Assembly (NCBI GenBank): GCA_000092065.1
Contig: CP000582.1
DNA: 64,000 nt
Origin: Ostreococcus lucimarinus
Taxonomy: Eukaryota
Strand: one strand, 5' to 3'
Under the pieces are notes generated by a model. The model was not told where the DNA came from, made no database searches, and worked only from the letters and a program-made list of their open reading frames with translations. Positions 11,911-57,677 of the stretch are shown one piece after another; the first letter of the stretch is position 1, and each line of letters opens with the position of its first letter. The translations under genes were made by a program, and so were the position numbers.

Positions 11911-12032
11911 CAAAATGAAATGCAGCAGCGCGGCATTATACGGAAGTGCGAGGAAACGCTTTCAACTAAATCACTGCAGACTAGTCGTCCCCTGATCTTG
12001 CATGCTTAGATTCTGCATACTTGACGGCACGT

Positions 12033-15197: not shown

Positions 15198-15214
15198 GAG
15201 GATTTGCATATTAT

Positions 15215-42646: not shown

Positions 42647-45600
42647 GTGACATATGACATCGTATTACAACGTTTTACCCCCACTTCGCAAGGACCGACC
42701 ACCCCATATCCATGTGCTATAAAAGCTAACTCAAAATGGAAGCTCGTACGTCTGAAACGCTTGGCGCTCGAGCGTTTCCGATGTCCGATGTTAACGCGCC
42801 ACAAACCGGAGAGCGTTCAGAATGGTACGCCCCGAAATGAATCACGAATGAGCAATCTAGACACACGCGCTATGTCGAACCCTTACTTTCAGGTCGGGCG
42901 ATGGGACTGCACGGACGAGCTCGAGGGGTGTCAATTCTCCGCGCCACATACGTCGGTGTCAGTTCCTAATTTCGAAGAGATTCAGACCCTTCACTACACC
43001 TGCGTGTATGAAGTGGCGATCACGTGTACACAGCGGCATGATATGCATAACGATGAGTTCGCGCATGTACTTAGTTCTGTCATCGAGCTCGCAAATCGCG
43101 TTGACCTGACACGACTTAGGCAACATCACTCCATAGATAACTTTGCCACACACGTTCTCACTTTTCGGTTCATTCTGGACCTGTTGAGGCAAACTTATCA
43201 GGAATACATCAAAGGAAGCATAGAAAATAATTCGTTTGAGCATGTCGAATTTACTTTCAACAATTGCATGGATGGTACGCACGGAATGGCAACATGCTTT
43301 AAACCGAATAAAAAGCATAGTCACCTTTGTTACATTTTGGATATTTCGCAGGCAGAAAGAAGTTGCAATGGTCGTACTGATGACACAAAATGCGTGCACG
43401 ACAAAATTACTATGAACGATCGCGTTCTTTCCGCGGCTAAGATCCCAGACAACGCAGTGAATAAACAATTCAGTGCTAGTATACTCAATGATGTGTATGG
43501 TTTCGATTCAAGTCTGTTCCATATTTCTCAGTCGGAAACCCTCTGCATGGACCCACAACAACGACTATTACTTCTTGCAGCAGCAGACTTATACCTGAGT
43601 AACACACGTGTTTGTCAACACGACGACTCCTTCTGCGTGCACGTCGGTGTATCGTGGAATGACTTTGAGGAAATTCGCAGAAAGTATAGTGCAGACTTTT
43701 TCTCCACTTATGATTCGACGGGAACATCAATAAGTGTCGCATCGGGTAGAATTGCGTATTATTTTGATTTCAAAGGGTGTGCTGTGACGATTGATACGGC
43801 TTGTTCATCATCTTTGGTTGCGTTGCATCAATCCATGTACGCAGCTGGCTCGCTCCGTGAATCAAGTGCACTTGTATGTGGCATCAACTTGATTTTGACA
43901 ACCACGATGACACATCGATTTCAGCTTGCTGGAATGATGTCTTCAGAGCATCGATGTATGACATTTGATGCACGCGCGGATGGCTACGTCCGGAGTGAGG
44001 CATGCAACATCGTACTCTTACACTTCAATGGCTTCACAAAAACTCATAGGAATGTACTGCGGCATGACGTTCATATGTCATGCGTCGTCAATCAAGATGG
44101 AACATCAACTGGACTTACGGCACCTAATGGAACAGCTCAGCGGAACCTGATGAATGAGTTACTATCGGACGTTTATAACCCTTCAAAACACGTTGGTGCT
44201 AAAATACATGCCCACGGCACAGGTACGCCTCTTGGGGATCCGATAGAGGTGTTTGCTATCAATTCTGCCCTCTCGTTTTCGTCACTGTGCAGGCTGTATG
44301 TGTCAGAAAAGTCGATGCGAGGGCACACAGAACCTGCTTCAGGTCTATGCAGCACCATACTTGCTTTCGTATCAGGTGCACAGTGCAAGCTACATGGTCA
44401 ACCACATTTACAGCAGTTAAACAATCATATACTAACATCGGTTGATGAAAGTATTTTTCAGCGTTCACTGCATTCCAGTTTTCCCTTAACTTCTATGGCG
44501 AGTGTCACCACAGTAAGCTCCTTCGCGTTCCAAGGGACGAACGCAATGGCTTCACTGACATATATCGACAAATGCAGTATTAGAGTGATTCGCAACACGT
44601 CAGGTCTGAGATCTTTGGTCAAGTTGGAGACTGAATCCCCTGTAAGACTCCCGTACACATTTTCTTGCCTTAGCATCGTCAATGGGAAAATGATACAGCT
44701 AACTTCAATGATTCACGACAAAACATTGAAGCGACTTTTGGATCATCGTGTAGCTGATATGCATCTTATGCCAGCCACAGGCCATCTTGAACTTGAAAGA
44801 GAGCTCACGAAGTGCGCTCTCGTAAGGAATGAACCATATCTTCTGACAAAGATCGCATTTATGCTGCCTCTCAAGCTTGATGAAAGCAATCAACTTATCA
44901 CAGAGATGAACACACATGGTCGCTTACGCGTTGGATGTGGCTCTGGCATATCCAATTACTGGTGTAGTACTGCACGACTTCAAATACCAGTAGGACGTGC
45001 CTGGTGCACGGACCGTACTTTTTATCTGACTAGTAAACTCGTTTCTCGGCGTTTCAAAGGTGCGACCGCAACAATAGCAGGGACGACGCCAATTCTCGAT
45101 TCACAAAATGTCGTGAATCCGTGTATCCAGGATGCGAGTCTACAATGCTCTGCATACGTCTTGAACACGTCAGCTTTCGCATCTGATACAACCTACATGG
45201 ACTGCGTATCGTTACTTAAGCTACCAACAACAATTCAAGACGTCATAGTTGTTAATCAGACAGGAAAAATACTTGTTAGATCGACGCATGTTGACATGTT
45301 GCAGAAGACGCAGCATGTGACTGAAAGTAATAACTCTGTCACAAGTAACTCTTCGAGTAACAATAAAACGCAGACATGGATACATCGTTTACTGTGTAAA
45401 GTATCAACCGTACGGATGAAAGCTGGCTTACGCACTCGCACATGCTTGGAACTCGCGAGATTGTTGTACCACGCGAGACAACAAAGAGTGCTGATATCAA
45501 ATATGCAAAACTTGCGTGAAGTAGGCAGTTTACATGCTCCAGAACTGATGCCCATCATGCGCGAAATGGGTCGTAAGTCAATGCAAGATATTAATTCGGC

Positions 45601-48600
45601 TAGTGCCTCTCTTTGCGCGGTTGCGCTGCTGCAGGCTTGCGGCGCTCGTGCGCGCGTTTCCGGCGCCCACGTGCGTGCAAACGACATCGTCCACGAGGAC
45701 GCTTCGGCCGCGCCCGCAGTCTGTGGATCGTGCGTGCGCGCCACCGTGCAATCTTCCGCGCAGGAACGCAGCGAGCCATTGGTGCTGAGTGTCGCGAGCG
45801 CCCCGCACACCGCGCCAGCCCGAGCGTTGCGATCGATCGCCGCCGGGGCGTCGATCGCCGGGGCGCTGTGCGTTGAGCGGCTGCTTCCGGCGTTCGGTCG
45901 CCGGACGCCCGCCGCGTCGCGCGACGGCGCGGCGACGACCACGGCGTCGCCGGCACCGAAAGTCTCGAGCGTGTTCGTGACTGGCGGTCTGGGCGCGTTG
46001 GGTCAGACTTCGGCGGCGTGGTACGCGCATCGAGGCGTTCGCCACGCCTACTTGACTGGTCGCCGCGGGCGCGGAGAGTCCCTTCTGCTGCGATGGTCGT
46101 CGCGCGGCGGTACCGACGTGAGCGCATTGCACGTGCTTCGCGTCGACGCGTGTGCGACCGACGAGGCGTCGTACGGCGGTGCGCGCGCGCACGCGCGCGT
46201 GCGCGCACACGGCGTGCTGCACGCGGGCGGCGTGCTACGCGACTCTTTGACTGCTCGCCAATCCGCGTCGGCCCATCGATACGTGTGGTCGTCCAAAGTA
46301 GTGTCCGCGCACGCATTGCTCCGCCAGTGCGTCGGCGTCGAGCGCGGCGCGCGTCACATCGCGCTGTTCTCGTCGGTGGCGGCGCTGCTGGGGAGTCCAG
46401 GGCAATGCAACTACAGCGCGGCCAACGCCGCGCTGGACGCGCGAGCCGCACACGAGTGGTGCCGCGGGTACGCGGTGCAATCCGTGCAGTGGGGCGCGTG
46501 GGACGGCGCGGGAATGGCGCTGACAAACGCGTCTGTACTCAGGAACGCGCGCACGACAGGCATCGGCGTGCTCGATCCGCAAGCCGGGCTCGGGGCCGTA
46601 CACGTCGCGCTTCAGGGCGCATCAGTGACGGGTCGCTGGCGGGCAATCCAAGGCGTCCTGGCCGTCGTCCCGTTCCAGTGGTCCGTGCTCGCGCGCGCGC
46701 AGCGCTCGCGCGCGCTGATTGCGGAGTACCGCGCGGAGTCGGCGCGGTCGAGCGCTCCAGTCGCCGTCCATCCGGGCGCCGAGGAAGACGCGGCGCGCGA
46801 TGTGTCAGATGAGAGCGTGCGGCAGATCGTGGCCTCCGCCGTGACGCGCGCGCTCGGCAGAGACGTGTCGGTGGACGCGTCGCTCATGGAAGAGGGCCTA
46901 GACTCGCTCGCGGCGGTCGAGCTCGGAGGGGCGTTACAAAAGGAAACGGGCGTGAACATGCCGGCCACGCTGGCATTTGACTACCCGACGATCACCGCGA
47001 TATCTGGGTACCTGAAGGGTGCGATGCTGGCGCGATCGCGTGCGCGCCAATCGAGCGGCGCGGCGTCCAGCGCCGCTCGCACGCGCGCCGCGAGCGGCGC
47101 GGTCGCGCATTCGCGCGACTCGATGCCAGGTATTGCATCCAACGCGCGCGAAATCTTGGGTCTTGCGCCCGTTGTTATGGCCATCAGACGGAGCGTGCGA
47201 CGACTCGACGCGGATGATCGAGAGCCAAAGCCTGCTCGACATGGCGGCTCGGCGTTGTTTTCATCGTTCGTGAGGTGCGTCATGGCAGAGCGAGCCTCTG
47301 AAGATCGCTTCGACACGCCATCGTTGGGCAGGCAGCCGAGCGCGACAGCGCGCGTGGTCTCCTTGACGAAAGCCAGAGATTTCACTACACAAGCTCTCGA
47401 CAGCATGCCGAAATGCAACGAGATTGAGCTGAGCGTCGTCAGCGCTGTGTCGAGTAAGGCATCAGGCGCGCACGATGCCGTGCGTGTGAACAACATGCGA
47501 CATGCGTGCGGCGAAGTGTGTGATCCACAAAGCTCAAAATCGCACGAGTTCGTCGCTCGGCGTCTTGTGCAGTTTGGGTACTTCATCGAGCGCAGCTTGT
47601 TTGACGGGGAGCAGTTCTCCGTAACGGCGCACGAGGCGCGGTTGATGGACCCGCAGCAGCGCGTGCTCCTGGAGAACGCGCTCGCCGCGACGAGTGCGAC
47701 GCCGCACAGCGCGCCGAAGCCAGCCACAGCCGTGTCCGTCGGCGCTTGGACGTCTCAGTACGCAGACATGTGCCGCGTGTACGAGCCAACGCCGGGGCCG
47801 TACTCTGGCGTTGCTTCCGCCTTGAGCGTGCTGTGCGGTCGCGTATCGTACACGTTTGGTATGCGTGGCCCGTCCGTGTGTGTCGACACCGCGTGCTCCT
47901 CCTCGCTCGTGGCCGCGCATGTTGCGAGCTCTCACTTGCGCGATGGATCGTGCGAGGACGCCCTCGTCGCCGGCGTGAGCGTGAACGTCGGCATCGGCAC
48001 CTTCCTCGTGGCCACCGCCGCGAGCATGCTATCGTTCGATGGTCGGTGCAAAACCTTGGATGCCAGCGCCGACGGTTACGCCAAGGGCGAGTGCTGCGTG
48101 GTCCTGCGCGTGTCGGTGGACGGGGCGAGCGCTGGAGCGCCCAAAGCGCCCGATCTTCCAAACGCCGAGTCTCCCTCTCTCGCTCTTCTCGAACAGACCG
48201 GTGTGAACCAGGATGGACGGTCGAGCTCGCTCACCGCACCAAACGGGCCGTCGCAGCAGGCACTCGTGGCCGATGCGCTTCTCCGCTCGGGGCTGCACGG
48301 CGACGCGCTCGGCAGGCTGGAGATGCACGGCACGGGTACTTCGCTGGGAGATCCGATAGAGGTCGGCGCCGCGCTTGAGGTTCTCGCGCCGCCGACGCGC
48401 GCGGACCGGGCGCCGTCCAGGGGCCCCGCGCTCACGCTTGAGGGCGTGAAGCCACGCGCTGGCCACTGCGAACCAGGGGCTGGCGCGGTTGGGTTGCTGT
48501 TTGCGATGGCAAACTTGACGGAGCGAGCCGTCGCGTCCCTCGTCCACCTGCGCCAGCTCAACCCTCACGTCGAGGCCGCGACGCGCCGAAACGCACCGTC

Positions 48601-51600
48601 GCCGCATGCGCGCGCGCCGGTGCTCGCGCGACAAGGCATGCCGCGACCGGATGACGGCGCGTCTGAGGCTGGAGCAGCGGACGCTGCTCGAGCGCGCGTG
48701 CGGCGATCCGGCGTGAGCGGCTTCGCGTTCCAGGGCACAAACGCGCACGCAATCATGGCCCGGGGACCCGGACAGGCGACTGCGCCCGGGTACACGGGAA
48801 GCACGCACACGGCGGCGCGTGCGTGGGAGCGTCAGCGCCACTGGTGCGCGCCAGAACGGCACTGCCTCATCGAGTCCGTGCGCGCTCTGCATCCTCGCGA
48901 GGGAGACTCGAGCGCGTTGGCGCGGTCGTGCGTGCGCCTGTGTCGGTCCGCGTCGCTCGCTGGCATGCTTGATCACGCCGTCGGGCTCCGGACGCTGCTA
49001 CCAGGCACAGCGCACGTCGAGATATGTCGAGCCATGGCGGGCGCGCTGGCAGACCAGCCGCTCGCCGACATCTCGCTGTCGCACGTATCTTTTGCAGCGC
49101 CCCTCGAGCTTCGAGCGCCGACGACCGACGTGCTGTGCGACGTCACGCCGCAAGGCGTGGCCCGCGTGGGCGTGCGCGTGTCGTCGTCCTCTGCCGCCGC
49201 GCCGTTCCTCGCGGGCGCGCTCAGCCGCAGAAGCGCCTCAAGAATTACTGCGTCTCCGGCGCACCTCTCGCGAGGACCGGCGATGCCCGCGCTGGACGTG
49301 CAGCCTTGTGTTCACGGCGCGAGCTGGCTGCGCTCGTCGCAGCGACGAGGCCCGGGCGCGGAGCACCGCGTGTACGGCGACATACGCGCGCGTCAGATGT
49401 CCACGCTGTCGGCTGCGGCGTATCACTCGCCGCCCGCAGTGCTCGATGCCGCGCTGCACGCGCTCAGCGCGTGCGCGCCGCCGCCGGGTAGCGATGCGAC
49501 AGAAGAGAGCCCGCACGTCCCGGCCACGATCGGCGGCGTCCGCACGCGAGGCGGGCACTCGGACATATACCGCGCCCGGTTCGCGCTCGCGACGGCTCCG
49601 CCTGAGCGCGGGGAGCGGAACGCGTCCACGCGCAGATCTCGTCACCACCTGTGGGACTGGTCGAGTCTTTCGGCGGCGCATCGAGGGTGCGTGGTGCACG
49701 CGCTGGAGTCTCGACGACTCGGTGGCGCCGCGGTCGTGCGCTCGCGAGCACAACAGCGCTCGAGGGCACCGCCGCCGCGTCGCGCGGCCGCGCCGCGTGT
49801 GCTTTATGGAGTCGGGCAACAGCGCGCGTGCGGCGCGGCGGATGGCCAGGGCGCGCGTCGACGCTCAACCCTCAACTCGCAGTGCTTTGTGGACGACGCG
49901 TCGCACCGCCGCGAGCTGATGGAGACCCACGCGTCACCATCGATCGCGCAAGGCAGCACGCGAAGCAGCACGCGCGCCTCTCTTTGCGCGGTTGCGCTGC
50001 TGCAGGCTTGCGGCGCTCGTGCGCGCGTTTCCGGCGCCCACGTGCGTGCAAACGACATCGTCCACGAGGACGCTTCGGCCGCGCCCGCAGTCTGTGGATC
50101 GTGCGTGCGCGCCACCGTGCAGTCTTCCGCGCAGGAACGCAGCGAGCCATTGGTGCTGAGTGTCGCGAGCGCCCCGCACACCGCGCCAGCCCGAGCGTTG
50201 CGATCGATCGCCGCCGGGGCGTCGATCGCCGGGGCGCTGTGCGTTGAGCGTCTGCTTCCGACGTTCGGTCGCCGGACGCCCGCCGCGTCGCGCGACGGCG
50301 CGGCGACGACCACGGCGTCGCCGGCACCGAAAGTCTCGAGCGTGTTCGTGACTGGCGGTCTGGGCGCGTTGGGTCAGACTTCGGCGGCGTGGTACGCGCA
50401 TCGAGGCGTTCGCCACGCCTACTTGACTGGTCGCCGCGGGCGCGGAGAGTCCCTTCTGCTGCGATGGTCGTCGCGCGGCGGTACCGACGTGAGCGCATTG
50501 CACGTGCTTCGCGTCGACGCGTGTGCGACCGACGAGGCGTCGTACGGCGGTGCGCGCGCGCACGCGCGCGTGCGCGCACACGGCGTGCTGCACGCGGGCG
50601 GCGTGCTACGCGACTCTTTGACTGCTCGCCAATCCGCGTCGGCCCATCGATACGTGTGGTCGTCCAAAGTAGTGTCCGCGCACGCATTGCTCCGCCAGTG
50701 CGTCGGCGTCGAGCGCGGCGCGCGTCACATCGCGCTGTTCTCGTCGGTGGCGGCGCTGCTGGGGAGTCCAGGGCAATGCAACTACAGCGCGGCCAACGCC
50801 GCGCTGGACGCGCGAGCCGCACACGAGTGGTGCCGCGGGTACGCGGTGCAATCCGTGCAGTGGGGCGCGTGGGACGGCGCGGGAATGGCGCTGACAAACG
50901 CGTCTGTACTCAGGAACGCGCGCACGACAGGCATCGGCGTGCTCGATCCGCAAGCCGGGCTCGGGGCCGTACACGTCGCGCTTCAGGGCGCATCAGTGAC
51001 GGGTCGCTGGCGGGCAATCCAAGGCGTCCTGGCCGTCGTCCCGTTCCAGTGGTCCGTGCTCGCGCGCGCGCAGCGCTCGCGCGCGCTGATTGCGGAGTAC
51101 CGCGCGGAGTCGGCGCGGTCGAGCGCTCCAGTCGCCGTCCATCCGGGCGCCGAGGAAGACGCGGCGCGCGATGTGTCAGATGAGAGCGTGCGGCAGATCG
51201 TGGCCTCCGCCGTGACGCGCGCGCTCGGCAGAGACGTGTCGGTGGACGCGTCGCTCATGGAAGAGGGCCTAGACTCGCTCGCGGCGGTCGAGCTCGGAGG
51301 GGCGTTACAAAAGGAAACGGGCGTGAACATGCCGGCCACGCTGGCATTTGACTACCCGACGATCACCGCGATATCTGGGTACCTGAAGGGTGCGATGCTG
51401 GCGCGATCGCGTGCGCGCCAATCGAGCGGCGCGGCGTCCAGCGCCGCTCGCACGCGCGCCGCGAGCGGCGCGGTCGCGCATTCGCGACGTACAACCATTA
51501 CTCAGCTCCCTCGTCTACGTCTATCATACGTTCCGCATGAAGTCAGCCGACGAACGACTCTTGGCATTAGCGGTCAATATTCTCACGAGCTTAGACACTT

Positions 51601-54600
51601 TAGCTCTGCGGGACCTTCGACCAGTAACTTTGAGGGAGTCCTCTTTGTTCGCATTCATAACTCCACCAAGCCCTTACCCGTGCATCCATATTTCATTGGC
51701 AACTTTTTGCGTTGTGACGAACTCGAGTTCGGCTTGTTTGGCGCACCGCACAGCGAATGGACTACTCTGGACGCGCGGCAGATTCTCTTGATTGAGAGTG
51801 TACACACTATCCAGCTGAACAACAGTTCAGACGTTTCATTGCGCACTCTAGAGACGACGGCTGTTCTTGTTGGAGCACAAGCGGTAGATTCAACTGACGA
51901 GCATAGCGTTGAGATACAGTACAACGCCTACTCTGGCGTTGCTTCCGCCTTGAGCGTGCTGTGCGGTCGCGTATCGTACACGTTTGGTATGCGTGGCCCG
52001 TCCGTGTGTGTCGACACCGCGTGCTCCTCCTCGCTCGTGGCCGCGCATGTTGCGAGCTCTCACTTGCGCGATGGATCGTGCGAGGACGCCCTCGTCGCCG
52101 GCGTGAGCGTGAACGTCGGCATCGGCACCTTCCTCGTGGCCACCGCCGCGAGCATGCTATCGTTCGATGGTCGGTGCAAAACCTTGGATGCCAGCGCCGA
52201 CGGTTACGCCAAGGGCGAGTGCTGCGTGGTCCTGCGCGTGTCGGTGGACGGGGCGAGCGCTGGAGCGCCCAAAGCGCCCGATCTTCCAAACGCCGAGTCT
52301 CCCTCTCTCGCTCTTCTCGAACAGACCGGTGTGAACCAGGATGGACGGTCGAGCTCGCTCACCGCACCAAACGGGCCGTCGCAGCAGGCACTCGTGGCCG
52401 ATGCGCTTCTCCGCTCGGGGCTGCACGGCGACGCGCTCGGCAGGCTGGAGATGCACGGCACGGGTACTTCGCTGGGAGATCCGATAGAGGTCGGCGCCGC
52501 GCTTGAGGTTCTCGCGCCGCCGACGCGCGCGGACCGGGCGCCGTCCAGGGGCCCCGCGCTCACGCTTGAGGGCGTGAAGCCACGCGCTGGCCACTGCGAA
52601 CCAGGGGCTGGCGCGGTTGGGTTGCTGTTTGCGATGGCAAACTTGACGGAGCGAGCCGTCGCGTCCCTCGTCCACCTGCGCCAGCTCAACCCTCACGTCG
52701 AGGCCGCGACGCGCCGAAACGCACCGTCGCCGCATGCGCGCGCGCCGGTGCTCGCGCGACAAGGCATGCCGCGACCGGATGACGGCGCGTCTGAGGCTGG
52801 AGCAGCGGACGCTGCTCGAGCGCGCGTGCGGCGATCCGGCGTGAGCGGCTTCGCGTTCCAGGGCACAAACGCGCACGCAATCATGGCCCGGGGACCCGGA
52901 CAGGCGACTGCGCCCGGGTACACGGGAAGCACGCACACGGCGGCGCGTGCGTGGGAGCGTCAGCGCCACTGGTGCGCGCCAGAACGGCACTGCCTCATCG
53001 AGTCCGTGCGCGCTCTTCATCCTCGCGAGGGAGACTCGAGCGCGTTGGCGCGGTCGTGCGTGCGCCTGTGTCGGTCCGCGTCGCTCGCTGGCATGCTTGA
53101 TCACGCCATCGGGCTCCGGACGCTACTACCAGGCACAGCGCACGTCGAGATATGTCGAGCCATGGCGGGCGCGCTGGCAGACCAGCCGCTCGCCGACATC
53201 TCGCTGTCGCACGTATCTTTTGCAGCGCCCCTCGAGCTTCGAGCGCCGACGACCGACGTGCTGTGCGACGTCACGCCGCAAGGCGTGGCCCGCGTGGGCG
53301 TGCGCGTGTCGTCGTCCTCTGCCGCCGCGCCGTTCCTCGCGGGCGCGCTCAGCCGCAGAAGCGCCTCAAGAATTACTGCGTCTCCGGCGCACCTCTCGCG
53401 AGGACCGGCGATGCCCGCGCTGGACGTGCAGCCTTGTGTTCACGGCGCCATCAGACGGAGCGTGCGACGACTCGACGCGGATGATCGAGAGCCAAAGCCT
53501 GCTCGACATGGCGGCTCGGCGTTGTTTTCATCGTTCGTGAGGTGCGTCATGGCAGAGCGAGCCTCTGAAGATCGCTTCGACACGCCATCGTTGGGCAGGC
53601 AGCCGAGCGCGACAGCGCGCGTGGTCTCCTTGACGAAAGCCAGAGATTTCACTACACAAGCTCTCGACAGCATGCCGAAATGCAACGAGATTGAGCTGAG
53701 CGTCGTCAGCGCTGTGTCGAGTAAGGCATCAGGCGCGCACGATGCTGTGCGTGTGAACAACATGCGACATGCGTGCGGCGAAGTGTGTGATCCACAAAGC
53801 TCAAAATCGCACGAGTTCGTCGCTCGGCATCTTGTGCAGTTTGGGTACTTCATCGAGCGCAGCTTGTTTGACGGGGAGCAGTTCTCCGTAACGGCGCACG
53901 AGGCGCGGTTGATGGACCCGCAGCAGCGCGTGCTCCTGGAGAACGCGCTCGCCGCGACGAGCGCGACGCCGCACAGCGCGCCGAAGCCAGCCACAGCCGT
54001 GTCCGTCGGCGCTTGGACGTCTCAGTACGCAGACATGTGCCGCGTGTACGAGCCAACGCCGGGGCCGTACTCTGGCGTTGCTTCCGCCTTGAGCGTGCTG
54101 TGCGGTCGCGTATCGTACACGTTTGGTATGCGTGGCCCGTCCGTGTGTGTCGACACCGCGTGCTCCTCCTCGCTCGTGGCCGCGCATGTTGCGAGCTCTC
54201 ACTTGCGCGATGGATCGTGCGAGGACGCCCTCGTCGCCGGCGTGAGCGTGAACGTCGGCATCGGCACCTTCCTCGTGGCCACCGCCGCGAGCATGCTATC
54301 GTTCGATGGTCGGTGCAAAACCTTGGATGCCAGCGCCGACGGTTACGCCAAGGGCGAGTGCTGCGTGGTCCTGCGCGTGTCGGTGGACGGGGCGAGCGCT
54401 GGAGCGCCCAAAGCGCCCGATCTTCCAAACGCCGAGTCTCCCTCTCTCGCTCTTCTCGAACAGACCGGTGTGAACCAGGATGGACGGTCGAGCTCGCTCA
54501 CCGCACCAAACGGGCCGTCGCAGCAGGCACTCGTGGCCGATGCGCTTCTCCGCTCGGGGCTGCACGGCGACGCGCTCGGCAGGCTGGAGATGCACGGCAC

Positions 54601-56623
54601 AGGTACTTCGCTGGGAGATCCGATAGAGGTCGGCGCCGCGCTTGAGGTTCTCGCGCCGCCGACGCGCGCGGACCGGGCGCCGTCCAGGCCCCCCGCGCTC
54701 ACGCTTGAGGGCGTGAAGCCACGCGCTGGCCACTGCGAACCAGGGGCTGGCGCGGTTGGGTTGCTGTTTGCGATGGCAAACTTGACGGAGCGAGCCGTCG
54801 CGTCCCTCGTCCACCTGCGCCAGCTCAACCCTCACGTCGAGGCCGCGACGCGCCGAAACGCACCGTCGCCGCATGCGCGCGCGCCGGTGCTCGCGCGACA
54901 AGGCATGCCGCGACCGGATGACGGCGCGTCTGAGGCTGGAGCAGCGGACGCTGCTCGAGCGCGCGTGCGGCGATCCGGCGTGAGCGGCTTCGCGTTCCAG
55001 GGCACAAACGCGCACGCAATCATGGCCCGGGGACCCGGACAGGCGACTGCGCCCGGGTACACGGGAAGCACGCACACGGCGGCGCGTGCGTGGGAGCGTC
55101 AGCGCCACTGGTGCGCGCCAGAACGGCACTGCCTCATCGAGTCCGTGCGCGCTCTTCATCCTCGCGAGGGAGACTCGAGCGCGTTGGCGCGGTCGTGCGT
55201 GCGCCTGTGTCGGTCCGCGTCGCTCGCTGGCATGCTTGATCACGCCATCGGGCTCCGGACGCTACTACCAGGCACAGCGCACGTCGAGATATGTCGAGCC
55301 ATGGCGGGCGCGCTGGCAGACCAGCCGCTCGCCGACATCTCGCTGTCGCACGTATCTTTTGCAGCGCCCCTCGAGCTTCGAGCGCCGACGACCGACGTGC
55401 TGTGCGACGTCACGCCGCAAGGCGTGGCCCGCGTGGGCGTGCGCGTGTCGTCGTCCTCTGCCGCCGCGCCGTTCCTCGCGGGCGCGCTCAGCCGCAGAAG
55501 CGCCTCAAGAATTACTGCGTCTCCGGCGCACCTCTCGCGAGGACCGGCGATGCCCGCGCTGGACGTGCAGCCTTGTGTTCACGGCGCGAGCTGGCTGCGC
55601 TCGTCGCAGCGACGAGGCCCGGGCGCGGAGCACCGCGTGTACGGCGACATACGCGCGCGTCAGATGTCCACGCTGTCGGCTGCGGCGTATCACTCGCCGC
55701 CCGCAGTGCTCGATGCCGCGCTGCACGCGCTCAGCGCGTGCGCGCCGCCGCCGGGTAGCGATGCGACAGAAGAGAGCCCGCACGTCCCGGCCACGATCGG
55801 CGGCGTCCGCACGCGAGGCGGGCACTCGGACATGTACCGCGCCCGGTTCGCGCTCGCGACGGCTCCGCCTGAGCGCGGGGAGCGGAACGCGTCCACGCGC
55901 AGATCTCGTCACCACCTGTGGGACTGGTCGAGTCTTTCGGCGGCGCATCGAGGGTGCGTGGTGCACGCGCTGGAGTCTCGACGACTCGGTGGCCTCACGA
56001 CGAATTCATTTTATCATAGCTTTACGTCTACGCAGGCATATAAGTTGGCTCATATTCCACGGCCAGACATCCTATCGCAGTCTTTCACTTCAATGAAGAC
56101 TATAAATGCTGTCGACAAAGCTAGCAGCACATTTACAGAACGCAGTAGTGATGCGATGGAAATTGTTAACGCCGTGCAACGCGAGATTTTGGAAATTTTA
56201 TCAACATTAACGACCAGTCCTGTAAGTTTAGATGATACACTTGCGAGCCACGGATTGGACTCACTGGGCATTGCATATTTTTTTATTCAAGTTGGCAAAC
56301 GGTTCAATGTTGAAGTGACTGTTGACAGTCTTGGCACGAACACCACAGTCAGTAGTATAGTGCATCAGATATCACAGATGCTTAGTGCAAGGGTGATTTT
56401 CCTACACACCAAGGACCTGGTGCGCGAGCGAAAAGCCGACAGCTCCTCAAGAAGAGGAAGGAGCACTGCGATCACATCGATGGTGTCTGCATACCGTCGA
56501 CACTTGCAGTCAACTGAATTCGAGCCCAAAGCCTGTTTTGCAAGAGGCGTACTTGCTTGCGCAATATTTACTATATTTATCATTGCGTACGGATATCACG
56601 CACACAGATTCGACATGTTTTAG
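42647..56623 (+). CDS. Giant type I modular polyketide synthase, 4658 aa, lacking acyltransferase in every module and lacking a terminal thioesterase. Domain order: N-terminal unknown domain, KS0, DH-like, KR, ACP, KS, DH-like, KR, ACP, KS (N-terminally diverged), KS, DH-like, ACP.
   Basis: A continuous reading frame with four ketosynthase domains. Each has the Cys active site (DTACSSSLVA), the first His (AHGTGT / MHGTGT) and the second His (RGHTEPASG / AGHCEPGAG). Two ketoreductases have Rossmann FVTGGLGALG and the catalytic motif GQCNYSAANAALD. Three carrier domains carry the phosphopantetheine Ser (EEGLDSLAAVEL x2, SHGLDSLGIAYF). There are DH-like segments (LDHRVADMHLMPATGHLE; LDHAVGLRTLLPGTAHVE). 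No GHSxG acyltransferase motif and no TE domain are present. The first ATG in frame is about 42786; the track start is GTG 42647. Internal composition is about 70% GC versus about 45% for the N- and C-terminal parts. Confidence 0.85.
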   Translation: MTYDIVLQRFTPTSQGPTTPYPCAIKANSKWKLVRLKRLALERFRCPMLTRHKPESVQNGTPRNESRMSNLDTRAMSNPYFQVGRWDCTDELEGCQFSAPHTSVSVPNFEEIQTLHYTCVYEVAITCTQRHDMHNDEFAHVLSSVIELANRVDLTRLRQHHSIDNFATHVLTFRFILDLLRQTYQEYIKGSIENNSFEHVEFTFNNCMDGTHGMATCFKPNKKHSHLCYILDISQAERSCNGRTDDTKCVHDKITMNDRVLSAAKIPDNAVNKQFSASILNDVYGFDSSLFHISQSETLCMDPQQRLLLLAAADLYLSNTRVCQHDDSFCVHVGVSWNDFEEIRRKYSADFFSTYDSTGTSISVASGRIAYYFDFKGCAVTIDTACSSSLVALHQSMYAAGSLRESSALVCGINLILTTTMTHRFQLAGMMSSEHRCMTFDARADGYVRSEACNIVLLHFNGFTKTHRNVLRHDVHMSCVVNQDGTSTGLTAPNGTAQRNLMNELLSDVYNPSKHVGAKIHAHGTGTPLGDPIEVFAINSALSFSSLCRLYVSEKSMRGHTEPASGLCSTILAFVSGAQCKLHGQPHLQQLNNHILTSVDESIFQRSLHSSFPLTSMASVTTVSSFAFQGTNAMASLTYIDKCSIRVIRNTSGLRSLVKLETESPVRLPYTFSCLSIVNGKMIQLTSMIHDKTLKRLLDHRVADMHLMPATGHLELERELTKCALVRNEPYLLTKIAFMLPLKLDESNQLITEMNTHGRLRVGCGSGISNYWCSTARLQIPVGRAWCTDRTFYLTSKLVSRRFKGATATIAGTTPILDSQNVVNPCIQDASLQCSAYVLNTSAFASDTTYMDCVSLLKLPTTIQDVIVVNQTGKILVRSTHVDMLQKTQHVTESNNSVTSNSSSNNKTQTWIHRLLCKVSTVRMKAGLRTRTCLELARLLYHARQQRVLISNMQNLREVGSLHAPELMPIMREMGRKSMQDINSASASLCAVALLQACGARARVSGAHVRANDIVHEDASAAPAVCGSCVRATVQSSAQERSEPLVLSVASAPHTAPARALRSIAAGASIAGALCVERLLPAFGRRTPAASRDGAATTTASPAPKVSSVFVTGGLGALGQTSAAWYAHRGVRHAYLTGRRGRGESLLLRWSSRGGTDVSALHVLRVDACATDEASYGGARAHARVRAHGVLHAGGVLRDSLTARQSASAHRYVWSSKVVSAHALLRQCVGVERGARHIALFSSVAALLGSPGQCNYSAANAALDARAAHEWCRGYAVQSVQWGAWDGAGMALTNASVLRNARTTGIGVLDPQAGLGAVHVALQGASVTGRWRAIQGVLAVVPFQWSVLARAQRSRALIAEYRAESARSSAPVAVHPGAEEDAARDVSDESVRQIVASAVTRALGRDVSVDASLMEEGLDSLAAVELGGALQKETGVNMPATLAFDYPTITAISGYLKGAMLARSRARQSSGAASSAARTRAASGAVAHSRDSMPGIASNAREILGLAPVVMAIRRSVRRLDADDREPKPARHGGSALFSSFVRCVMAERASEDRFDTPSLGRQPSATARVVSLTKARDFTTQALDSMPKCNEIELSVVSAVSSKASGAHDAVRVNNMRHACGEVCDPQSSKSHEFVARRLVQFGYFIERSLFDGEQFSVTAHEARLMDPQQRVLLENALAATSATPHSAPKPATAVSVGAWTSQYADMCRVYEPTPGPYSGVASALSVLCGRVSYTFGMRGPSVCVDTACSSSLVAAHVASSHLRDGSCEDALVAGVSVNVGIGTFLVATAASMLSFDGRCKTLDASADGYAKGECCVVLRVSVDGASAGAPKAPDLPNAESPSLALLEQTGVNQDGRSSSLTAPNGPSQQALVADALLRSGLHGDALGRLEMHGTGTSLGDPIEVGAALEVLAPPTRADRAPSRGPALTLEGVKPRAGHCEPGAGAVGLLFAMANLTERAVASLVHLRQLNPHVEAATRRNAPSPHARAPVLARQGMPRPDDGASEAGAADAARARVRRSGVSGFAFQGTNAHAIMARGPGQATAPGYTGSTHTAARAWERQRHWCAPERHCLIESVRALHPREGDSSALARSCVRLCRSASLAGMLDHAVGLRTLLPGTAHVEICRAMAGALADQPLADISLSHVSFAAPLELRAPTTDVLCDVTPQGVARVGVRVSSSSAAAPFLAGALSRRSASRITASPAHLSRGPAMPALDVQPCVHGASWLRSSQRRGPGAEHRVYGDIRARQMSTLSAAAYHSPPAVLDAALHALSACAPPPGSDATEESPHVPATIGGVRTRGGHSDIYRARFALATAPPERGERNASTRRSRHHLWDWSSLSAAHRGCVVHALESRRLGGAAVVRSRAQQRSRAPPPRRAAAPRVLYGVGQQRACGAADGQGARRRSTLNSQCFVDDASHRRELMETHASPSIAQGSTRSSTRASLCAVALLQACGARARVSGAHVRANDIVHEDASAAPAVCGSCVRATVQSSAQERSEPLVLSVASAPHTAPARALRSIAAGASIAGALCVERLLPTFGRRTPAASRDGAATTTASPAPKVSSVFVTGGLGALGQTSAAWYAHRGVRHAYLTGRRGRGESLLLRWSSRGGTDVSALHVLRVDACATDEASYGGARAHARVRAHGVLHAGGVLRDSLTARQSASAHRYVWSSKVVSAHALLRQCVGVERGARHIALFSSVAALLGSPGQCNYSAANAALDARAAHEWCRGYAVQSVQWGAWDGAGMALTNASVLRNARTTGIGVLDPQAGLGAVHVALQGASVTGRWRAIQGVLAVVPFQWSVLARAQRSRALIAEYRAESARSSAPVAVHPGAEEDAARDVSDESVRQIVASAVTRALGRDVSVDASLMEEGLDSLAAVELGGALQKETGVNMPATLAFDYPTITAISGYLKGAMLARSRARQSSGAASSAARTRAASGAVAHSRRTTITQLPRLRLSYVPHEVSRRTTLGISGQYSHELRHFSSAGPSTSNFEGVLFVRIHNSTKPLPVHPYFIGNFLRCDELEFGLFGAPHSEWTTLDARQILLIESVHTIQLNNSSDVSLRTLETTAVLVGAQAVDSTDEHSVEIQYNAYSGVASALSVLCGRVSYTFGMRGPSVCVDTACSSSLVAAHVASSHLRDGSCEDALVAGVSVNVGIGTFLVATAASMLSFDGRCKTLDASADGYAKGECCVVLRVSVDGASAGAPKAPDLPNAESPSLALLEQTGVNQDGRSSSLTAPNGPSQQALVADALLRSGLHGDALGRLEMHGTGTSLGDPIEVGAALEVLAPPTRADRAPSRGPALTLEGVKPRAGHCEPGAGAVGLLFAMANLTERAVASLVHLRQLNPHVEAATRRNAPSPHARAPVLARQGMPRPDDGASEAGAADAARARVRRSGVSGFAFQGTNAHAIMARGPGQATAPGYTGSTHTAARAWERQRHWCAPERHCLIESVRALHPREGDSSALARSCVRLCRSASLAGMLDHAIGLRTLLPGTAHVEICRAMAGALADQPLADISLSHVSFAAPLELRAPTTDVLCDVTPQGVARVGVRVSSSSAAAPFLAGALSRRSASRITASPAHLSRGPAMPALDVQPCVHGAIRRSVRRLDADDREPKPARHGGSALFSSFVRCVMAERASEDRFDTPSLGRQPSATARVVSLTKARDFTTQALDSMPKCNEIELSVVSAVSSKASGAHDAVRVNNMRHACGEVCDPQSSKSHEFVARHLVQFGYFIERSLFDGEQFSVTAHEARLMDPQQRVLLENALAATSATPHSAPKPATAVSVGAWTSQYADMCRVYEPTPGPYSGVASALSVLCGRVSYTFGMRGPSVCVDTACSSSLVAAHVASSHLRDGSCEDALVAGVSVNVGIGTFLVATAASMLSFDGRCKTLDASADGYAKGECCVVLRVSVDGASAGAPKAPDLPNAESPSLALLEQTGVNQDGRSSSLTAPNGPSQQALVADALLRSGLHGDALGRLEMHGTGTSLGDPIEVGAALEVLAPPTRADRAPSRPPALTLEGVKPRAGHCEPGAGAVGLLFAMANLTERAVASLVHLRQLNPHVEAATRRNAPSPHARAPVLARQGMPRPDDGASEAGAADAARARVRRSGVSGFAFQGTNAHAIMARGPGQATAPGYTGSTHTAARAWERQRHWCAPERHCLIESVRALHPREGDSSALARSCVRLCRSASLAGMLDHAIGLRTLLPGTAHVEICRAMAGALADQPLADISLSHVSFAAPLELRAPTTDVLCDVTPQGVARVGVRVSSSSAAAPFLAGALSRRSASRITASPAHLSRGPAMPALDVQPCVHGASWLRSSQRRGPGAEHRVYGDIRARQMSTLSAAAYHSPPAVLDAALHALSACAPPPGSDATEESPHVPATIGGVRTRGGHSDMYRARFALATAPPERGERNASTRRSRHHLWDWSSLSAAHRGCVVHALESRRLGGLTTNSFYHSFTSTQAYKLAHIPRPDILSQSFTSMKTINAVDKASSTFTERSSDAMEIVNAVQREILEILSTLTTSPVSLDDTLASHGLDSLGIAYFFIQVGKRFNVEVTVDSLGTNTTVSSIVHQISQMLSARVIFLHTKDLVRERKADSSSRRGRSTAITSMVSAYRRHLQSTEFEPKACFARGVLACAIFTIFIIAYGYHAHRFDMF
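43500..44570 (+). other. PKS domain: KS0 (ketosynthase, host-like 45% GC codon usage)
   Basis: Product is MDPQQRLLLLAAADLY...AVTIDTACSSSLVALHQSMYAAG...HAHGTGTPLGDPIEV...MRGHTEPASG...SFAFQGTNAMASL. Confidence 0.8.
45607..47119 (+). repeat. PKS repeat unit R1 copy 1 (KR-ACP coding unit, about 1.51 kb, about 72% GC)
   Basis: Begins ctctttgcgcggttgcgctgctgcaggcttgc. It is more than 99% identical to 49980..51486. It contains the KR (FVTGGLGALG ... NYSAANAALDA) and the ACP (GLDSLAAVEL). Confidence 0.85.
47183..49321 (+). repeat. PKS repeat unit R2 copy a (KS + DH-like coding unit, 2139 bp)
   Basis: Runs from catcagacggagcgtgcgacg... to ...gccttgtgttcacggcgc. It encodes IRRSVRRLDADD...MDPQQRVLLENAL...VDTACSSSLVAAHVASSHL...EMHGTGTSLGDPIEV...RAGHCEPGAG...GFAFQGTNAHAIM...LDHAVGLRTLLPGTAHVE...PALDVQPCVHGA. 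It is followed by a 658-bp tail (49322..49979) before R1 copy 2. Confidence 0.85.
49980..51486 (+). repeat. PKS repeat unit R1 copy 2 (KR-ACP)
   Basis: The same sequence as 45607..47119, displaced by 4373 bp. It carries a handful of substitutions (for example PAFGRRTP becomes PTFGRRTP). The many spurious overlapping long ORFs on both strands here (for example 46018..46812 equals 50389..51183) are GC-richness artefacts. Confidence 0.85.
51487..51928 (+). other. Diverged, host-like (about 48% GC) segment inside the PKS repeat array. It encodes an alternative version of the KS N-terminal subdomain.
   Basis: In frame it gives ...CDELEFGLFGAPHSEWTTLDARQILLIESVHTIQL...TAVLVGAQAVDSTDEHSVEIQYNA. This parallels the GC-rich copies (...EARLMDPQQRVLLENAL...TAVSVGAWTSQYADMCRVYEPTPGP) at protein level, but shows no nucleotide identity. 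Confidence 0.6.
51929..53448 (+). repeat. PKS repeat unit R2 copy b (5'-truncated; corresponds to 47801..49321)
   Basis: Identity starts at tactctggcgttgcttccgccttgagc. The first about 620 bp of the unit are replaced by the diverged 45%-GC segment 51487..51928. Confidence 0.85.
53449..55587 (+). repeat. PKS repeat unit R2 copy c (full 2139-bp KS + DH-like unit) fused head-to-tail to copy b
   Basis: The junction ...gtgttcacggcgcc|atcagacggagcg joins the end of copy b directly to the start of the unit. It is followed by a partial tail 55588..55990, which matches 49322..49722. It differs from copy a by a few substitutions (RRLVQFGY becomes RHLVQFGY, SRGPALT becomes SRPPALT, GGHSDIY becomes GGHSDMY). 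Confidence 0.85.
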
Positions 56624-56792: not shown

Positions 56793-56798
56793 AAGGTG

Positions 56799-57677
56799 AT
56801 GCCGAGGCGCACATCATTAGCCAACGGCAGCTCGCTGTACGACGGGTTGCGATTTAAGTCGAGCGGGTTCAAGCGTTCGGGCAGGAAAGTGAACTTTTAC
56901 ACGTGTAGTACGATCGACGACTCGGACAGAAACGCGTCCTCGACGGGGAGATGCACGTTCGAGGCGGAGATCCGGCACAGAGCCGCGACGGACGAGTACT
57001 TCATCACCAAGTACGTCGGCCATTCGTTCGGTTGCACCGCGCTCTCGCCCCACATCGACGGGGAAACGCGAGCCGAGCTCGTCGATGACGTGCAAATGCA
57101 AGCCATATCCCTGCAACGAGGTCGCGTCGCTGTACAATCGTGTATCGATTACGTGTTCCGGCGCTACTCGTACGTCGTCGACGAAGCGCCGGCTGCGTCG
57201 TTACTTCAGTGCGTGCGGCGACGAAGTTCGGTGGCCACTCGCAGAGAGGCTCTTAAGCGCTTCGCTCAGACGAAAGTGCGATCGAAATTACAGGGCGAAC
57301 TCATGACCTGCATCGCGCACTCGCGCCAAGTCATAACCTCGTTGAGCCTGACCGAACGCCCGACGTCACGCGACATTCGAAAGTATTATCATGTGTTCGG
57401 ATTGCTGCACACGCACTGCAGTCGTCTTCCGGAGTTCGACTCGCTCGCAACCGTATGGATGGCCGCAGATACGACTAGCAGCGCCGCGCTCATTCATGCG
57501 CTCGAGCTCGGCATCAAAAAATTCGACAACGCACTGCGCACCGTTCGCCCCGCGACTGCCTCACAAACTGAAGCCTTGCACAACGCTCACGGCCATCTTC
57601 CTCCTTACGATCTCAGTGAAGCCGAGGCGTTGACGGCTCTTCGTAGTATAGCGCGTTCTGCCCAAACACGTTCGTAG
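56799..57677 (+). CDS. Hypothetical 292-aa protein with a GHSFG (GxSxG) nucleophile-elbow motif. Candidate alpha/beta-hydrolase or discrete thioesterase immediately downstream of the TE-less PKS.
   Basis: YFITKYVGHSFGCTALSP gives a hydrophobic strand followed by G-H-S-F-G, as in type II thioesterases and lipases. The rest has no recognisable similarity by eye. GC is about 56%, intermediate. The real ATG is at 56799; the track start at 56796 is GTG. Confidence 0.4.
   Translation: MPRRTSLANGSSLYDGLRFKSSGFKRSGRKVNFYTCSTIDDSDRNASSTGRCTFEAEIRHRAATDEYFITKYVGHSFGCTALSPHIDGETRAELVDDVQMQAISLQRGRVAVQSCIDYVFRRYSYVVDEAPAASLLQCVRRRSSVATRREALKRFAQTKVRSKLQGELMTCIAHSRQVITSLSLTERPTSRDIRKYYHVFGLLHTHCSRLPEFDSLATVWMAADTTSSAALIHALELGIKKFDNALRTVRPATASQTEALHNAHGHLPPYDLSEAEALTALRSIARSAQTRS

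Follow-up and report, generated by a model that had tools for sequence, protein, structure and literature searches.

Can a single reading frame in a eukaryotic nuclear genome encode a modular polyketide synthase (PKS) in which no module carries an acyltransferase (AT), and would such a gene be unusual? The question is raised by an ORF at 42647–56623 in the 64-kb stretch of Ostreococcus lucimarinus DNA analyzed here (the window), which a sequence-only reading had described as a single-ORF modular PKS. The ORF, which like all parts of the gene described below lies on the plus strand, comprises 4658 codons with zero internal stops in this sequence. From the ATG at 43043 its translation shows no difference from XP_001416177.1 (4526 aa; exact-sequence look-up), the product of an annotated single-exon CDS (43043–56623; also ABO94470.1 and UniProt A4RSV8) named "polyketide synthase [Ostreococcus lucimarinus CCE9901]", and three neighboring proteins are also exact matches to O. 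lucimarinus CCE9901 proteins. The domain order agrees with the entry for OluPKS1 in Table S2 of Shelest et al. 2015 (PMC4661987), where this protein (JGI 119561) is described as noniterative and predicted trans-AT, with the order KS-KR-ACP-KS-KR-ACP-KS2-ACP; JGI 119561 and XP_001416177.1 are equated here by architecture and KS count rather than by a direct identifier cross-reference. The finding of an AT-less PKS, as first stated, is thus already known, since GenBank/RefSeq and UniProt already carry an annotation of the gene and its architecture was published in 2015. The view that trans-AT modular PKSs are essentially bacterial and unusual in a eukaryote is also out of date. Integrated AT domains are missing from almost all of ~30 algal multimodular PKSs (Shelest et al. 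2015, PMC4661987), and AT-less multimodular PKSs are likewise reported in Chlamydomonas from algal genome mining (PMC7073580) and in Prymnesium in the PKZILLA work, making this arrangement the norm among algal multimodular PKSs. The ORF is very probably OluPKS1, a nuclear, single-exon, four-KS modular type I PKS of the chlorophyte AT-less ("trans-AT") group, situated in the low-GC outlier region (BOC1, the candidate mating-type MT- locus) of the big outlier chromosome and built as a recombination mosaic.

Domain content was assessed with two HMM libraries and a motif scan. Across the whole protein, Pfam detected ketoacyl-synt and Ketoacyl-synt_C four times each, KR twice, PP-binding three times, PKS_DH_N four times and PS-DH twice. 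Together with the motifs, this bears out the earlier count of four KS, two KR, three carriers and several DH-like segments, of which there are four, one truncated. DTACSSS, HGTGT and a second His are found in all four KS domains, GGxGxxG and the Tyr motif in both KR domains, GxDSL in each of the three ACPs and an HxxxGxxxxP-like motif in all four DH domains, with DxxxQ/H in DH1, DH2 and DH4. Acyl_transf_1, thioesterase (TE) and enoylreductase (ER) domains gave no Pfam match in the whole protein at E≤0.1, nor at E≤1 with the protein split into six segments. No AT or FabD family is among the best 25 NCBIfam families listed, and both GHSxG and AFHS are absent from the PKS protein. The earlier statements that no module holds an AT, and that TE and ER are missing, therefore stand. 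The refined order is [leader]-KS1-DH1-KR1-ACP1-KS2-DH2-KR2-ACP2-KS3-DH3(N-half only)-KS4-DH4-ACP3-[hydrophobic C-terminus]. Several KS...ACP modules (4 KS, 3 ACP, 2 KR and 4 DH) are thus combined in one polypeptide, as in other chlorophyte AT-less PKSs, and by Pfam at E≤1, the NCBIfam families listed and the motif scan none has an integrated AT. There is no AT in each module between the KS and the reducing domains, as there would be in a cis-AT modular PKS of the DEBS type. No AT, PPTase or TE was detected in the other scanned ORFs of the 64-kb window.

The ends of the gene are of low GC content. Upstream of the annotated start, the frame remains open for 132 codons (42647–43042; ATGs at 42788, 42848 and 42872) that have no Pfam match. 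This stretch contains no stops in the PKS frame versus six in each of the other two, and only 0.24% of shuffles stay open; the extension may be coding. The N-terminal domain of ~280 aa previously called unassignable was overstated, since its first 132 codons precede the ATG at 43043 and only ~80–170 residues are unassigned. In PDB alignments, ORF residue 279 falls at about residue 70 of the KS fold, so the fold of KS1 probably begins near residue 210–225. An AlphaFold model of the N-terminus with KS1, built on a 12-sequence alignment, has a pLDDT of 39, too low to be informative. KS1 itself (43487–44566; Pfam) is very divergent (32% identity to KS2 and ≤40% to anything else retrieved), with Cys/His/His present in motifs at aa 383, 523 and 555. 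DH1 follows at 44693–45466 (3' limit approximate), with HRVADMHLMP and DASLQ at aa 700 and 829 and a PKS_DH_N score of 24.6 bits, below the Pfam cutoff of 27. At the other end, a unique tail of 45% GC (55994–56623; Pfam, motif and hydropathy) carries ACP3 (56186–56365; PP-binding E=2.5e-8, GLDSL at aa 4536) and a hydrophobic C-terminal segment (56531–56599), and has no TE. The hydropathy maximum of the entire protein (KD 2.25) lies in this segment, at aa 4629, and the stretch after ACP3 stays open in only 0.9% of shuffles. The hydrophobic C-terminus is a possible tail anchor by prediction.

Between these ends, which have ~45% GC (GC3 0.43–0.49), the interior has ~70% GC (GC3 0.76–0.80) and consists almost wholly of 1.5- to 2.5-kb repeats that are 99.6–99.8% identical, with GC steps coinciding with repeat boundaries. 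Repeat A1 (45605–47115; 71% GC, GC3 0.80) is 99.8% identical to 49976–51486 and contains the Pfam matches for KR1 (45968–46504) and ACP1 (46829–47014). Repeat B1 (47180–49726; 68% GC, 99.6% identical to 53447–55993) comprises an ACP-KS linker, KS2 (47552–48766) and DH2 (48965–49585; PKS_DH_N at 33.7 bits plus a PS-DH match), as placed by Pfam and motifs. It is followed by an unrepeated DH-to-KR linker piece distinguished by its composition (49727–49975; 73% GC), whose junction is seen again in the metagenome fragments P0256, P0258, P0264 and P0267. The repeat map, Pfam and motifs then place repeat A2 (49976–51486), with KR2 (50339–50875), ACP2 (51200–51385) and three sites differing from A1, and, further downstream, repeat B2 (53447–55993), with a linker, KS4 (53819–55033), DH4 (55232–55852), no KR thereafter and ten sites differing from B1. 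Between A2 and B2 lie a unique segment of 50% GC (51487–51925), recognized by composition and by local alignment to the N-terminal region of KS2, and a partial copy of B, repeat B' (51926–53448), that is 99.7% identical to 47797–49320 and 54064–55587. The former contains an ACP-KS linker and the N-terminal part of KS3; the latter supplies the remainder of KS3 (domain 51716–52894) and the N-terminal half of DH3 (53093–53446). KS3 is therefore a chimera of low- and high-GC parts fused in frame, and our reading of the low-GC part is that it may be the relic of an older KS joined to a high-GC core. DH3 ends at the B'/B2 duplication junction, with a PKS_DH_N match and neither PS-DH nor DxxxQ/H. The metagenome protein P0266, in which the low-GC N-terminus of KS3 seemed to meet the high-GC KS core at a different junction, proved to be an artefact of a contig joined via the Illumina adapter GTGTGCTCTTCCGATCT (translated VCSSDL).

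The variant sites of B' resemble B1 in its 5' part and B2 in its 3' part, and the repeat copies have 13 variable sites in total, too few to polarise for GC-biased conversion. Taken together, the repeats and the GC mosaic suggest that modules were recently duplicated and underwent gene conversion. A search for transposon ends at a 5.17-kb indel revealed no terminal inverted repeats. We found no mention of the mosaic in the literature and regard it as a modest side observation.

The window had been described as an ordinary, compact eukaryotic neighbourhood. The genes are indeed of eukaryotic housekeeping type, with a separase, SNF2, tRNA synthetases, a cyclin, a kinase, an XPG-like nuclease and a transposase as neighbours, but the setting is not ordinary, since the PKS lies in an outlier region of ~45% GC in a genome reported at 60% GC (PMC8557840). 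The interior of the PKS forms an island of ~70% GC within this region, which has been described as non-recombining. Given housekeeping-type neighbours and no MT or ECH domain found, the locus does not resemble a bacterial trans-AT (Piel-type) cluster. The downstream ORF at 56796–57677 was considered as a missing hydrolase or AT and rejected: it has no Pfam match at E≤10, no PDB match and an AlphaFold pLDDT of 39. Its GHSFG is the sole GHSxG in a six-frame translation of the window, where roughly one is expected by chance per 128,000 translated residues. The ORF has six relatives among 1.84 billion representatives, and the motif is not conserved: the most distant homologue has RHSYG instead.

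From established PKS biochemistry, a route can be proposed for such an enzyme. A discrete malonyl-CoA:ACP acyltransferase encoded elsewhere would load the three ACPs. Modules 1 and 2 would each extend, reduce and dehydrate the chain, giving an expected 2,4-dienoyl intermediate; the KR domains look B-type because LRD stands at the LDD position. As the KS3/KS4-DH4-ACP3 end has no KR, it would add one or two ketide units that stay unreduced. Release without a TE could then occur through a trans hydrolase, by hand-off to another PKS or by spontaneous pyrone formation. However, the KS3-DH3(half)-KS4 segment is without a dedicated ACP and resembles a scar left by rearrangement; the enzyme may therefore not operate colinearly, or even operate at all.

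The locus could accordingly be recently rearranged, decaying or dispensable, with the intact ORF reflecting only the youth of the rearrangements. We consider this unlikely, although it is the strongest of the alternatives. In its favor, KS3 lacks a partner ACP, a duplication junction cuts DH3 short, and no KR is available to provide DH4 with a substrate. Natural PKS null alleles occur in O. tauri (PMC5498103), and strong structural variation has been reported for BOC1 PKS loci. A 360-kb environmental contig (L008) also carries a shorter gene with two out-of-frame junctions; however, this is one contig, and its correctness is uncertain. In contrast, all 4658 codons are open, the catalytic motifs of KS, KR and ACP are intact in every copy, and assemblies from several samples reproduce both the 5' and the 3' junction of the reference type.

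It is far less probable that a divergent cis AT is present but invisible to sequence profiles. Some 100–140 residues behind each KS, as well as the N-terminal leader, have no confident assignment, with only a weak KAsynt_C_assoc match (E=0.03–0.05). Yet after space is set aside for the rest of DH (its C-terminal half) and for the KR structural subdomain, every such gap is estimated to be too short for an AT of ~300 aa with linkers. The absence of GHSxG and AFHS also argues against a hidden AT, as does the easy detection of PF00698 in bacterial matches of the same searches.

A third possibility is that misassembly or contamination attached foreign DNA, bacterial or otherwise, to algal sequence and so created the high-GC interior. 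The 25-point jump in GC within a single ORF, and the richness of the high-GC part in Ala, Arg and Gly, as in actinomycete PKSs, could suggest this. However, the reading frame is maintained over every junction, including that between the low-GC KS3 N-terminus and its high-GC core, and with genome-wide GC reported at 0.60 (PMC8557840) it is the low-GC flanks, not the interior, that are the outlier. The nearest relatives of the high-GC KS domains are algal or marine. KS2 shares 66% identity with an O. tauri PKS, 71% with a PKS from a marine metagenome and ~50% with Bathycoccus, versus ≤40% for named bacteria among the matches listed. By nearest-relative identity rather than by a tree, KS2–4 group with chlorophyte KS domains, and KS1, at ≤40% to anything, is too divergent to place. 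OluPKS1-KS4 was included in the KS analysis of Shelest 2015 (PMC4661987), in which prasinophyte KS domains cluster together, and we read the discussion there as favoring AT loss within the algal lineage.

The two outer junctions are moreover found in independent marine metagenome assemblies. At the 5' side, independent assemblies yield 44-kb contigs that extend from the kinase across the low-GC part as far as ~45723 (118 nt into repeat A; k119 assembly), and P0265 covers the junction of the unique low-GC 5' part with A1. At the 3' side, contigs L009 and L010 start 127 and 141 nt inside B2 and span its junction with the tail. Within the gene, contig L015 covers the junction of A2 with the 51487 segment and continues up to 51834. 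For the internal junctions at 51925/51926 and 53447/53448 there were 0 exact matches in JGI metagenome contigs; contigs flanked by repeats are suspected to be too short for retention. The outer junctions and the algal KS relatives exclude the bacterial contaminant contig envisaged earlier, and a foreign interior is effectively refuted.

A PUFA-synthase-like enzyme making a polyunsaturated fatty acyl chain, as the sequence-only reading had also entertained, is scarcely credible: KS, DH and KR without ER and a partial NCBIfam PfaA match would fit, but the PfaA match (TIGR02813) reaches 226 bits against a cutoff of 1010 and arises via the KS domains only, the ACPs are single and not in tandem arrays, no AT/MAT is present, the DH domains fit PKS-type models, and PUFA and glycolipid synthases form a separate cis-AT clade in Shelest 2015 (PMC4661987).

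As an algal AT-less PKS, OluPKS1 can be compared with several known systems. The giant PKSs of Mamiellales BOC1 (O. tauri OtaPKS, Bathycoccus and Micromonas) are likewise AT-less, modular and located in a low-GC outlier region, and such giant PKS genes have been reported as a conserved yet structurally hypervariable feature of BOC1. KS2–4 are 66% identical to an O. tauri PKS and ~50% to Bathycoccus, figures that denote identity and not gene-level orthology. The tandem modules of the Bathycoccus PKS locus are near-identical too (99.3–99.8%), with GC above that of the flanks. OluPKS1 differs from other Mamiellales PKSs in being small (4 KS versus up to 14 or more) and in its low-GC, highly divergent first KS and last ACP. 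The 11-module chlorophyte trans-AT PKS of Chlamydomonas reinhardtii, PKS1, is also nuclear, AT-less and multimodular; it greatly exceeds OluPKS1 in size and, unlike it, includes a TE and a loading domain of adenylation type. Reducing domains are missing from its last modules, and a pyrone has been suggested to form spontaneously (PMC7073580); its knockout affects the zygospore wall, as cited in the PKZILLA work. The PKZILLAs of Prymnesium parvum are eukaryotic algal modular PKSs of trans-AT type as well, but they are of haptophyte origin, comprise dozens of modules and many KS0-containing bimodules, end in a TE and have a known product. Among solved structures, the best match for both KS types (E=1e-57 and 1e-80) is the Brevibacillus bimodule core 7ZMA of a bacterial trans-AT PKS, whose modules are also AT-less; we judge this match to be distant. 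The window contains no clustered trans-AT genes, beta-branching cassettes or MT domains of the kind that characterize bacterial trans-AT PKSs. Relative to the published OluPKS1 entry, the present analysis adds four DH domains (one truncated), a possible upstream extension, a hydrophobic C-terminus and the repeat and GC mosaic.

The mosaic also invites a tentative explanation, which we hold as possible rather than probable. Ongoing intragenic gene conversion and unequal recombination between modules might act as a private recombination hotspot, in which GC-biased conversion keeps the GC of the repeated modules level with the standard genome or higher, whereas the two unrepeated domains, the first KS and the last ACP, decay toward AT. 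If true, the structural diversity of PKSs on Mamiellales outlier chromosomes would be driven by concerted module evolution, and the PKS modules would constitute a natural experiment on GC-biased gene conversion.

The corrected domain map, with DH domains present and one truncated, a KS-KS scar, a KR-less last module and possibly a longer N-terminus and tail anchor, constrains prediction of the product, and natural disrupted or shortened alleles, if real, could tie the gene to a metabolite. The mosaic itself offers a testable case of concerted module evolution within a sex-chromosome-like, low-recombination region, and bears on the origin of PKS diversity and on GC-biased gene conversion in Ostreococcus.

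The polyketide synthase (PKS) gene occupies 42647-56623 (+) as a single ORF of 4658 aa, and both the ORF listing and the translation show zero internal stops, as the sequence-only reading had proposed. A Pfam search of the whole protein recovered the domains it had listed, namely four ketosynthases (KS; ketoacyl-synt/Ketoacyl-synt_C pairs), two ketoreductases (KR), three carrier domains (ACP; PP-binding) and dehydratase-like (DH) segments (four PKS_DH_N and two PS-DH matches). No acyltransferase (AT), thioesterase (TE) or enoylreductase family was found in the whole protein at E<=0.1, again as claimed, and no AT was detected when the protein was scanned as six segments at E<=1. AT and FabD models are likewise absent from the 25 NCBIfam families listed for this protein, and a motif scan found neither GHSxG nor AFHS. 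The same scan identified DTACSSS, HGTGT and the second catalytic His in 4/4 KS domains, GGxGxxG and the YSAAN tyrosine in both KRs, GxDSL in all three ACPs, and an HxxxGxxxxP-like motif in all four DHs; DxxxQ/H was found in every DH except DH3. In its refined form, the domain order runs KS1-DH1-KR1-ACP1-KS2-DH2-KR2-ACP2-KS3-DH3(half)-KS4-DH4-ACP3, in which KS1 shares only 32% identity with KS2 and at most 40% with any other sequence retrieved. These searches show an intact, motif-complete four-KS synthase lacking AT and TE, confirming the initial observation.

From the ATG at 43043, the ORF exactly matches XP_001416177.1 (ABO94470.1; UniProt A4RSV8), a single-exon "polyketide synthase" of 4526 aa. 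Shelest et al. (2015, PMC4661987) list three O. lucimarinus type I PKSs, one with 14 KS domains and two with 4 each, and the KS/KR/ACP order found here agrees with the OluPKS1 entry (JGI 119561) in Table S2 of that study, given there as noniterative and predicted trans-AT (KS-KR-ACP-KS-KR-ACP-KS2-ACP). The other four-KS enzyme, OluPKS2, was rejected as a match, since it begins with an AMP-ligase and has three KRs (PMC4661987). This is an already annotated, published gene of a known class. Integrated ATs are missing from almost all of the about 30 algal multimodular PKSs in that study (PMC4661987). The same AT-less point has been made for chlorophyte megasynthases (PMC7073580) and haptophyte PKZILLAs. 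Because AT-less PKSs are already published for algae (PMC4661987, PMC7073580, PKZILLAs), the architecture that had been regarded as unusual in a eukaryote is the norm for this group. The architectural part of the earlier interpretation stands, but its rarity claim does not, and the suggested PUFA-like chain is judged unsupported.

The ORF extends beyond the deposited gene model, with 132 codons (42647-43042) preceding the annotated start. This frame contains 0 stops, compared with 6 and 6 in the other frames, and stays open in 0.24% of shuffles. Since three in-frame ATGs (42788, 42848 and 42872) also lie upstream of 43043, the true start is uncertain; the upstream codons may be coding and the deposited model may start too far downstream. 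None of the homologues retrieved in the protein search spans this leader. The first ORF residue aligned to PDB structures is 279, which pairs with residue 70 of a KS chain, so we infer that the KS1 fold begins near residue 210-225. An unassignable N-terminal domain of about 280 aa had been noted; residues 1-300 indeed have no Pfam match of any kind in the segment scan at E<=1, but the proposed size was too large, given the 132 codons before the ATG and a KS fold from ~210-225. At the other end, 85 codons follow ACP3 and remain open in only 0.9% of shuffles. They include a segment at 56531-56599 (aa 4629-4651, ACFARGVLACAIFTIFIIAYGYH) with the 19-mer of highest hydropathy in the whole protein (aa 4629-4647, KD 2.25). 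Judged by its hydrophobicity, this segment may be a tail anchor, which, if real, would be unusual for a PKS.

Standard PKS biochemistry suggests how such an enzyme could work. ACP1-3 would be charged by a discrete malonyl-CoA:ACP transacylase encoded elsewhere and, as there is no loading domain, KS1 would take its starter from a separate donor. Modules 1 and 2 would each carry out condensation, reduction and dehydration, giving a dienoyl chain intermediate; the KR looks B-type because LRD occupies the LDD position. ACP3 would be common to KS3 and KS4, with no KR, so that the chain end would stay beta-keto and two rounds would yield a 3,5-diketo thioester. Release could occur through a trans hydrolase, by hand-over to another synthase, or by spontaneous pyrone formation, a route proposed earlier for Chlamydomonas PKS1 and its unreduced terminal modules (PMC7073580).

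The surrounding genes were described earlier as an ordinary compact eukaryotic neighbourhood. They are eukaryotic and include exact matches to O. lucimarinus CCE9901 proteins (an STN7-like kinase, XP_001416427; separase, XP_001416421; Utp6, XP_001416173). Among the other ORFs scanned in the window, housekeeping functions are represented by Arg- and Ile-tRNA synthetases, a Na/H exchanger, a histone deacetylase, SNF2, a cyclin and a disulphide oxidoreductase; the scan also showed an XPG-like nuclease and a DDE_Tnp_4 transposase, and no AT, PPTase or TE. The setting is not ordinary, however: the window outside the PKS has 44-48% GC against a reported Ostreococcus genome GC of 0.60, and BOC1, the candidate mating-type region on the big outlier chromosome, is defined by an abrupt 9-17% fall in GC (PMC8557840), so the window probably belongs to BOC1. 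CCE9901 is regarded as MT- (PMC8557840). Valiadi et al. (bioRxiv 10.1101/2025.04.21.649811) describe giant type I PKS genes as conserved across the BOC1 regions of Mamiellales and hypervariable in structure, and mark the PKS coding regions of O. lucimarinus BOC1 as elevated in CpG methylation and MNase coverage.

Adjoining the PKS is a 5.17-kb block (35430-40598, ~53% GC) with a presence/absence polymorphism. It carries the XPG-like nuclease (38231-40354, -), the Harbinger-type transposase (36446-38239, +) and, at its left end, an 86-nt inverted repeat (35433-35518/36192-36277); its ends have no terminal inverted repeats. Three independent 44-kb metagenome contigs lack the block and have 61 unrelated nt instead, whereas the environmental contig L008 retains it. 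Directly 3' of the PKS lies a lineage-restricted orphan ORF (56796-57677, +; 293 aa, 52-58% GC). A search of 1.84 billion representatives gave it only 6 relatives, and neither Pfam nor PDB gave a match. It was rejected as a hidden TE or AT, given the lack of such matches and a GHSFG motif that is not conserved.

Self-comparison of the sequence revealed three near-identical repeat families inside the PKS gene. Repeat A (45605-47115 and 49976-51486; 99.8% identity) encodes KR-ACP, repeat B (47180-49726 and 53447-55993; 99.6%) encodes linker-KS-DH, and B', a part of B (51926-53448, matching 47797-49320 and 54064-55587; 99.7%), encodes the KS core and the N-terminal half of DH. The gene reads U1-A-l-B-u-A-U2-B'-B-U3, where U1-U3 are unique low-GC segments. 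The repeats have GC 0.68-0.71 and GC3 0.76-0.80, compared with 0.445-0.495 and 0.43-0.49 in the unique segments and 0.45-0.46 and 0.41-0.45 in neighbouring housekeeping genes. In 30-codon windows, GC3 steps fall near 45605, 51487, 51926 and 55994, close to the repeat edges, so that composition changes where the repeats begin and end. This layout accounts for three oddities of the domain map. KS3 is a chimera of a unique low-GC linker and N-terminal part, in which LDARQILLIE replaces MDPQQRVLLE, with a high-GC repeat core. DH3 breaks off halfway, keeping only its N-terminal part, at the point where B' meets the second B copy, a junction with similarity of only a few bases, and KS4-DH4 lacks a KR, with the low-GC ACP3 directly next.

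Two readings of this mosaic can be offered. GC-biased conversion among the repeats may hold them GC-rich while the region otherwise decays towards AT, which fits the role proposed for such conversion in Ostreococcus, where equilibrium GC is 0.36 versus an observed 0.60 (PMC8557840). B' shares its 5' variants with the first B copy and its 3' variants with the second, a pattern consistent with conversion or recombination between copies, although the 13 variable sites in all are too few to test GC bias. Alternatively, the standard genome may have been the source of a recently imported high-GC cassette, which duplication and conversion later spread; the protein search found no close donor, with no relative above 71% identity. 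The same tendency for repeats to be GC islands is seen in Bathycoccus prasinos (OZ117185.1, 624874-653726), for which no type I PKS was given in Shelest 2015 (PMC4661987). There, at ~12.4-28.9 kb of the locus, the PKS is built from four or more ~4.2-kb modules repeated in tandem (99.3-99.8% identical), with 0.45-0.47 GC against ~0.36-0.37 in the flanks. A related metagenome PKS (L014) carries a 4168-nt tandem duplication of 99.66% identity.

As an alternative to the working scheme outlined above, the KS3-DH3(half)-KS4 segment could be a recent scar in an impaired or dispensable enzyme. Null alleles of PKS genes occur naturally in O. tauri (PMC5498103), and the environmental contig L008 (JGI 3300047157, Ga0494219_00130, 360 kb; locus 10001-19817) fits this view: 99.97% identical to the window over an 11.8-kb flank, it carries a PKS ~3.8 kb shorter with two out-of-frame junctions. 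In one, 44836 is fused to 45605 with one extra base; in the other, 49175/55442 is fused to 56238, and the shortened gene is split into ORFs of 688 and 2630 aa. Such a sequence could come from a naturally disrupted allele or from faulty assembly.

The composition break within one ORF is striking (~45% GC to 45604, ~70% over 45605-55993 with a short dip at 51487-51925, and ~45% onward to the stop), and a bacterial contaminant joined by misassembly had been named as one thing that would refute the earlier reading. At the 5' side, the 44-kb contigs hold the kinase and the low-GC start of the PKS, as fragments of 1025-1032 aa from 42647 cut at the contig edge; the k119 edge (~45723) falls 118 nt inside repeat A, at a point where a de Bruijn assembly would be expected to break off, and metagenome fragment P0265 spans this junction directly. 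At the 3' side, contigs L009 (k127) and L010 (k141) start 127 and 141 nt inside the second B copy and extend past the low-GC tail as far as the downstream genes, with 99.5-99.96% identity. The internal DH2-to-KR2 junction is covered by metagenome fragments P0256, P0258, P0264 and P0267, and 51486/51487 by contig L015. The junctions 51925/51926 and 53447/53448 have no exact match in JGI metagenome contigs and are supported by the reference assembly alone. L015 (ENA ERZ27284477 k141_662492) is itself chimeric through an Illumina adapter (GTGTGCTCTTCCGATCT) near position 408-422, seen as VCSSDL in its predicted protein P0266, and P0166 terminates in a similar adapter-like tail; such fragments call for caution as junction evidence. 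The best relatives of the high-GC KS are algal (66% identity with a PKS of O. tauri, 71% with one from a marine metagenome, ~50% with Bathycoccus), with named bacterial matches in the search table at 40% identity or less. Recurrence of the outer junctions in independent contigs, of some internal ones in metagenome sequences, and this algal affinity argue against foreign DNA.

Neither the GC island nor its coincidence with the repeats is mentioned in Shelest 2015, where "GC content" does not occur, or by Valiadi et al., where "gene conversion" and "GC-rich" are both absent. The additions to prior knowledge of this synthase are modest, comprising the repeat and GC mosaic, a refined domain map and a possible disrupted allele; the mosaic is the part that may be new.
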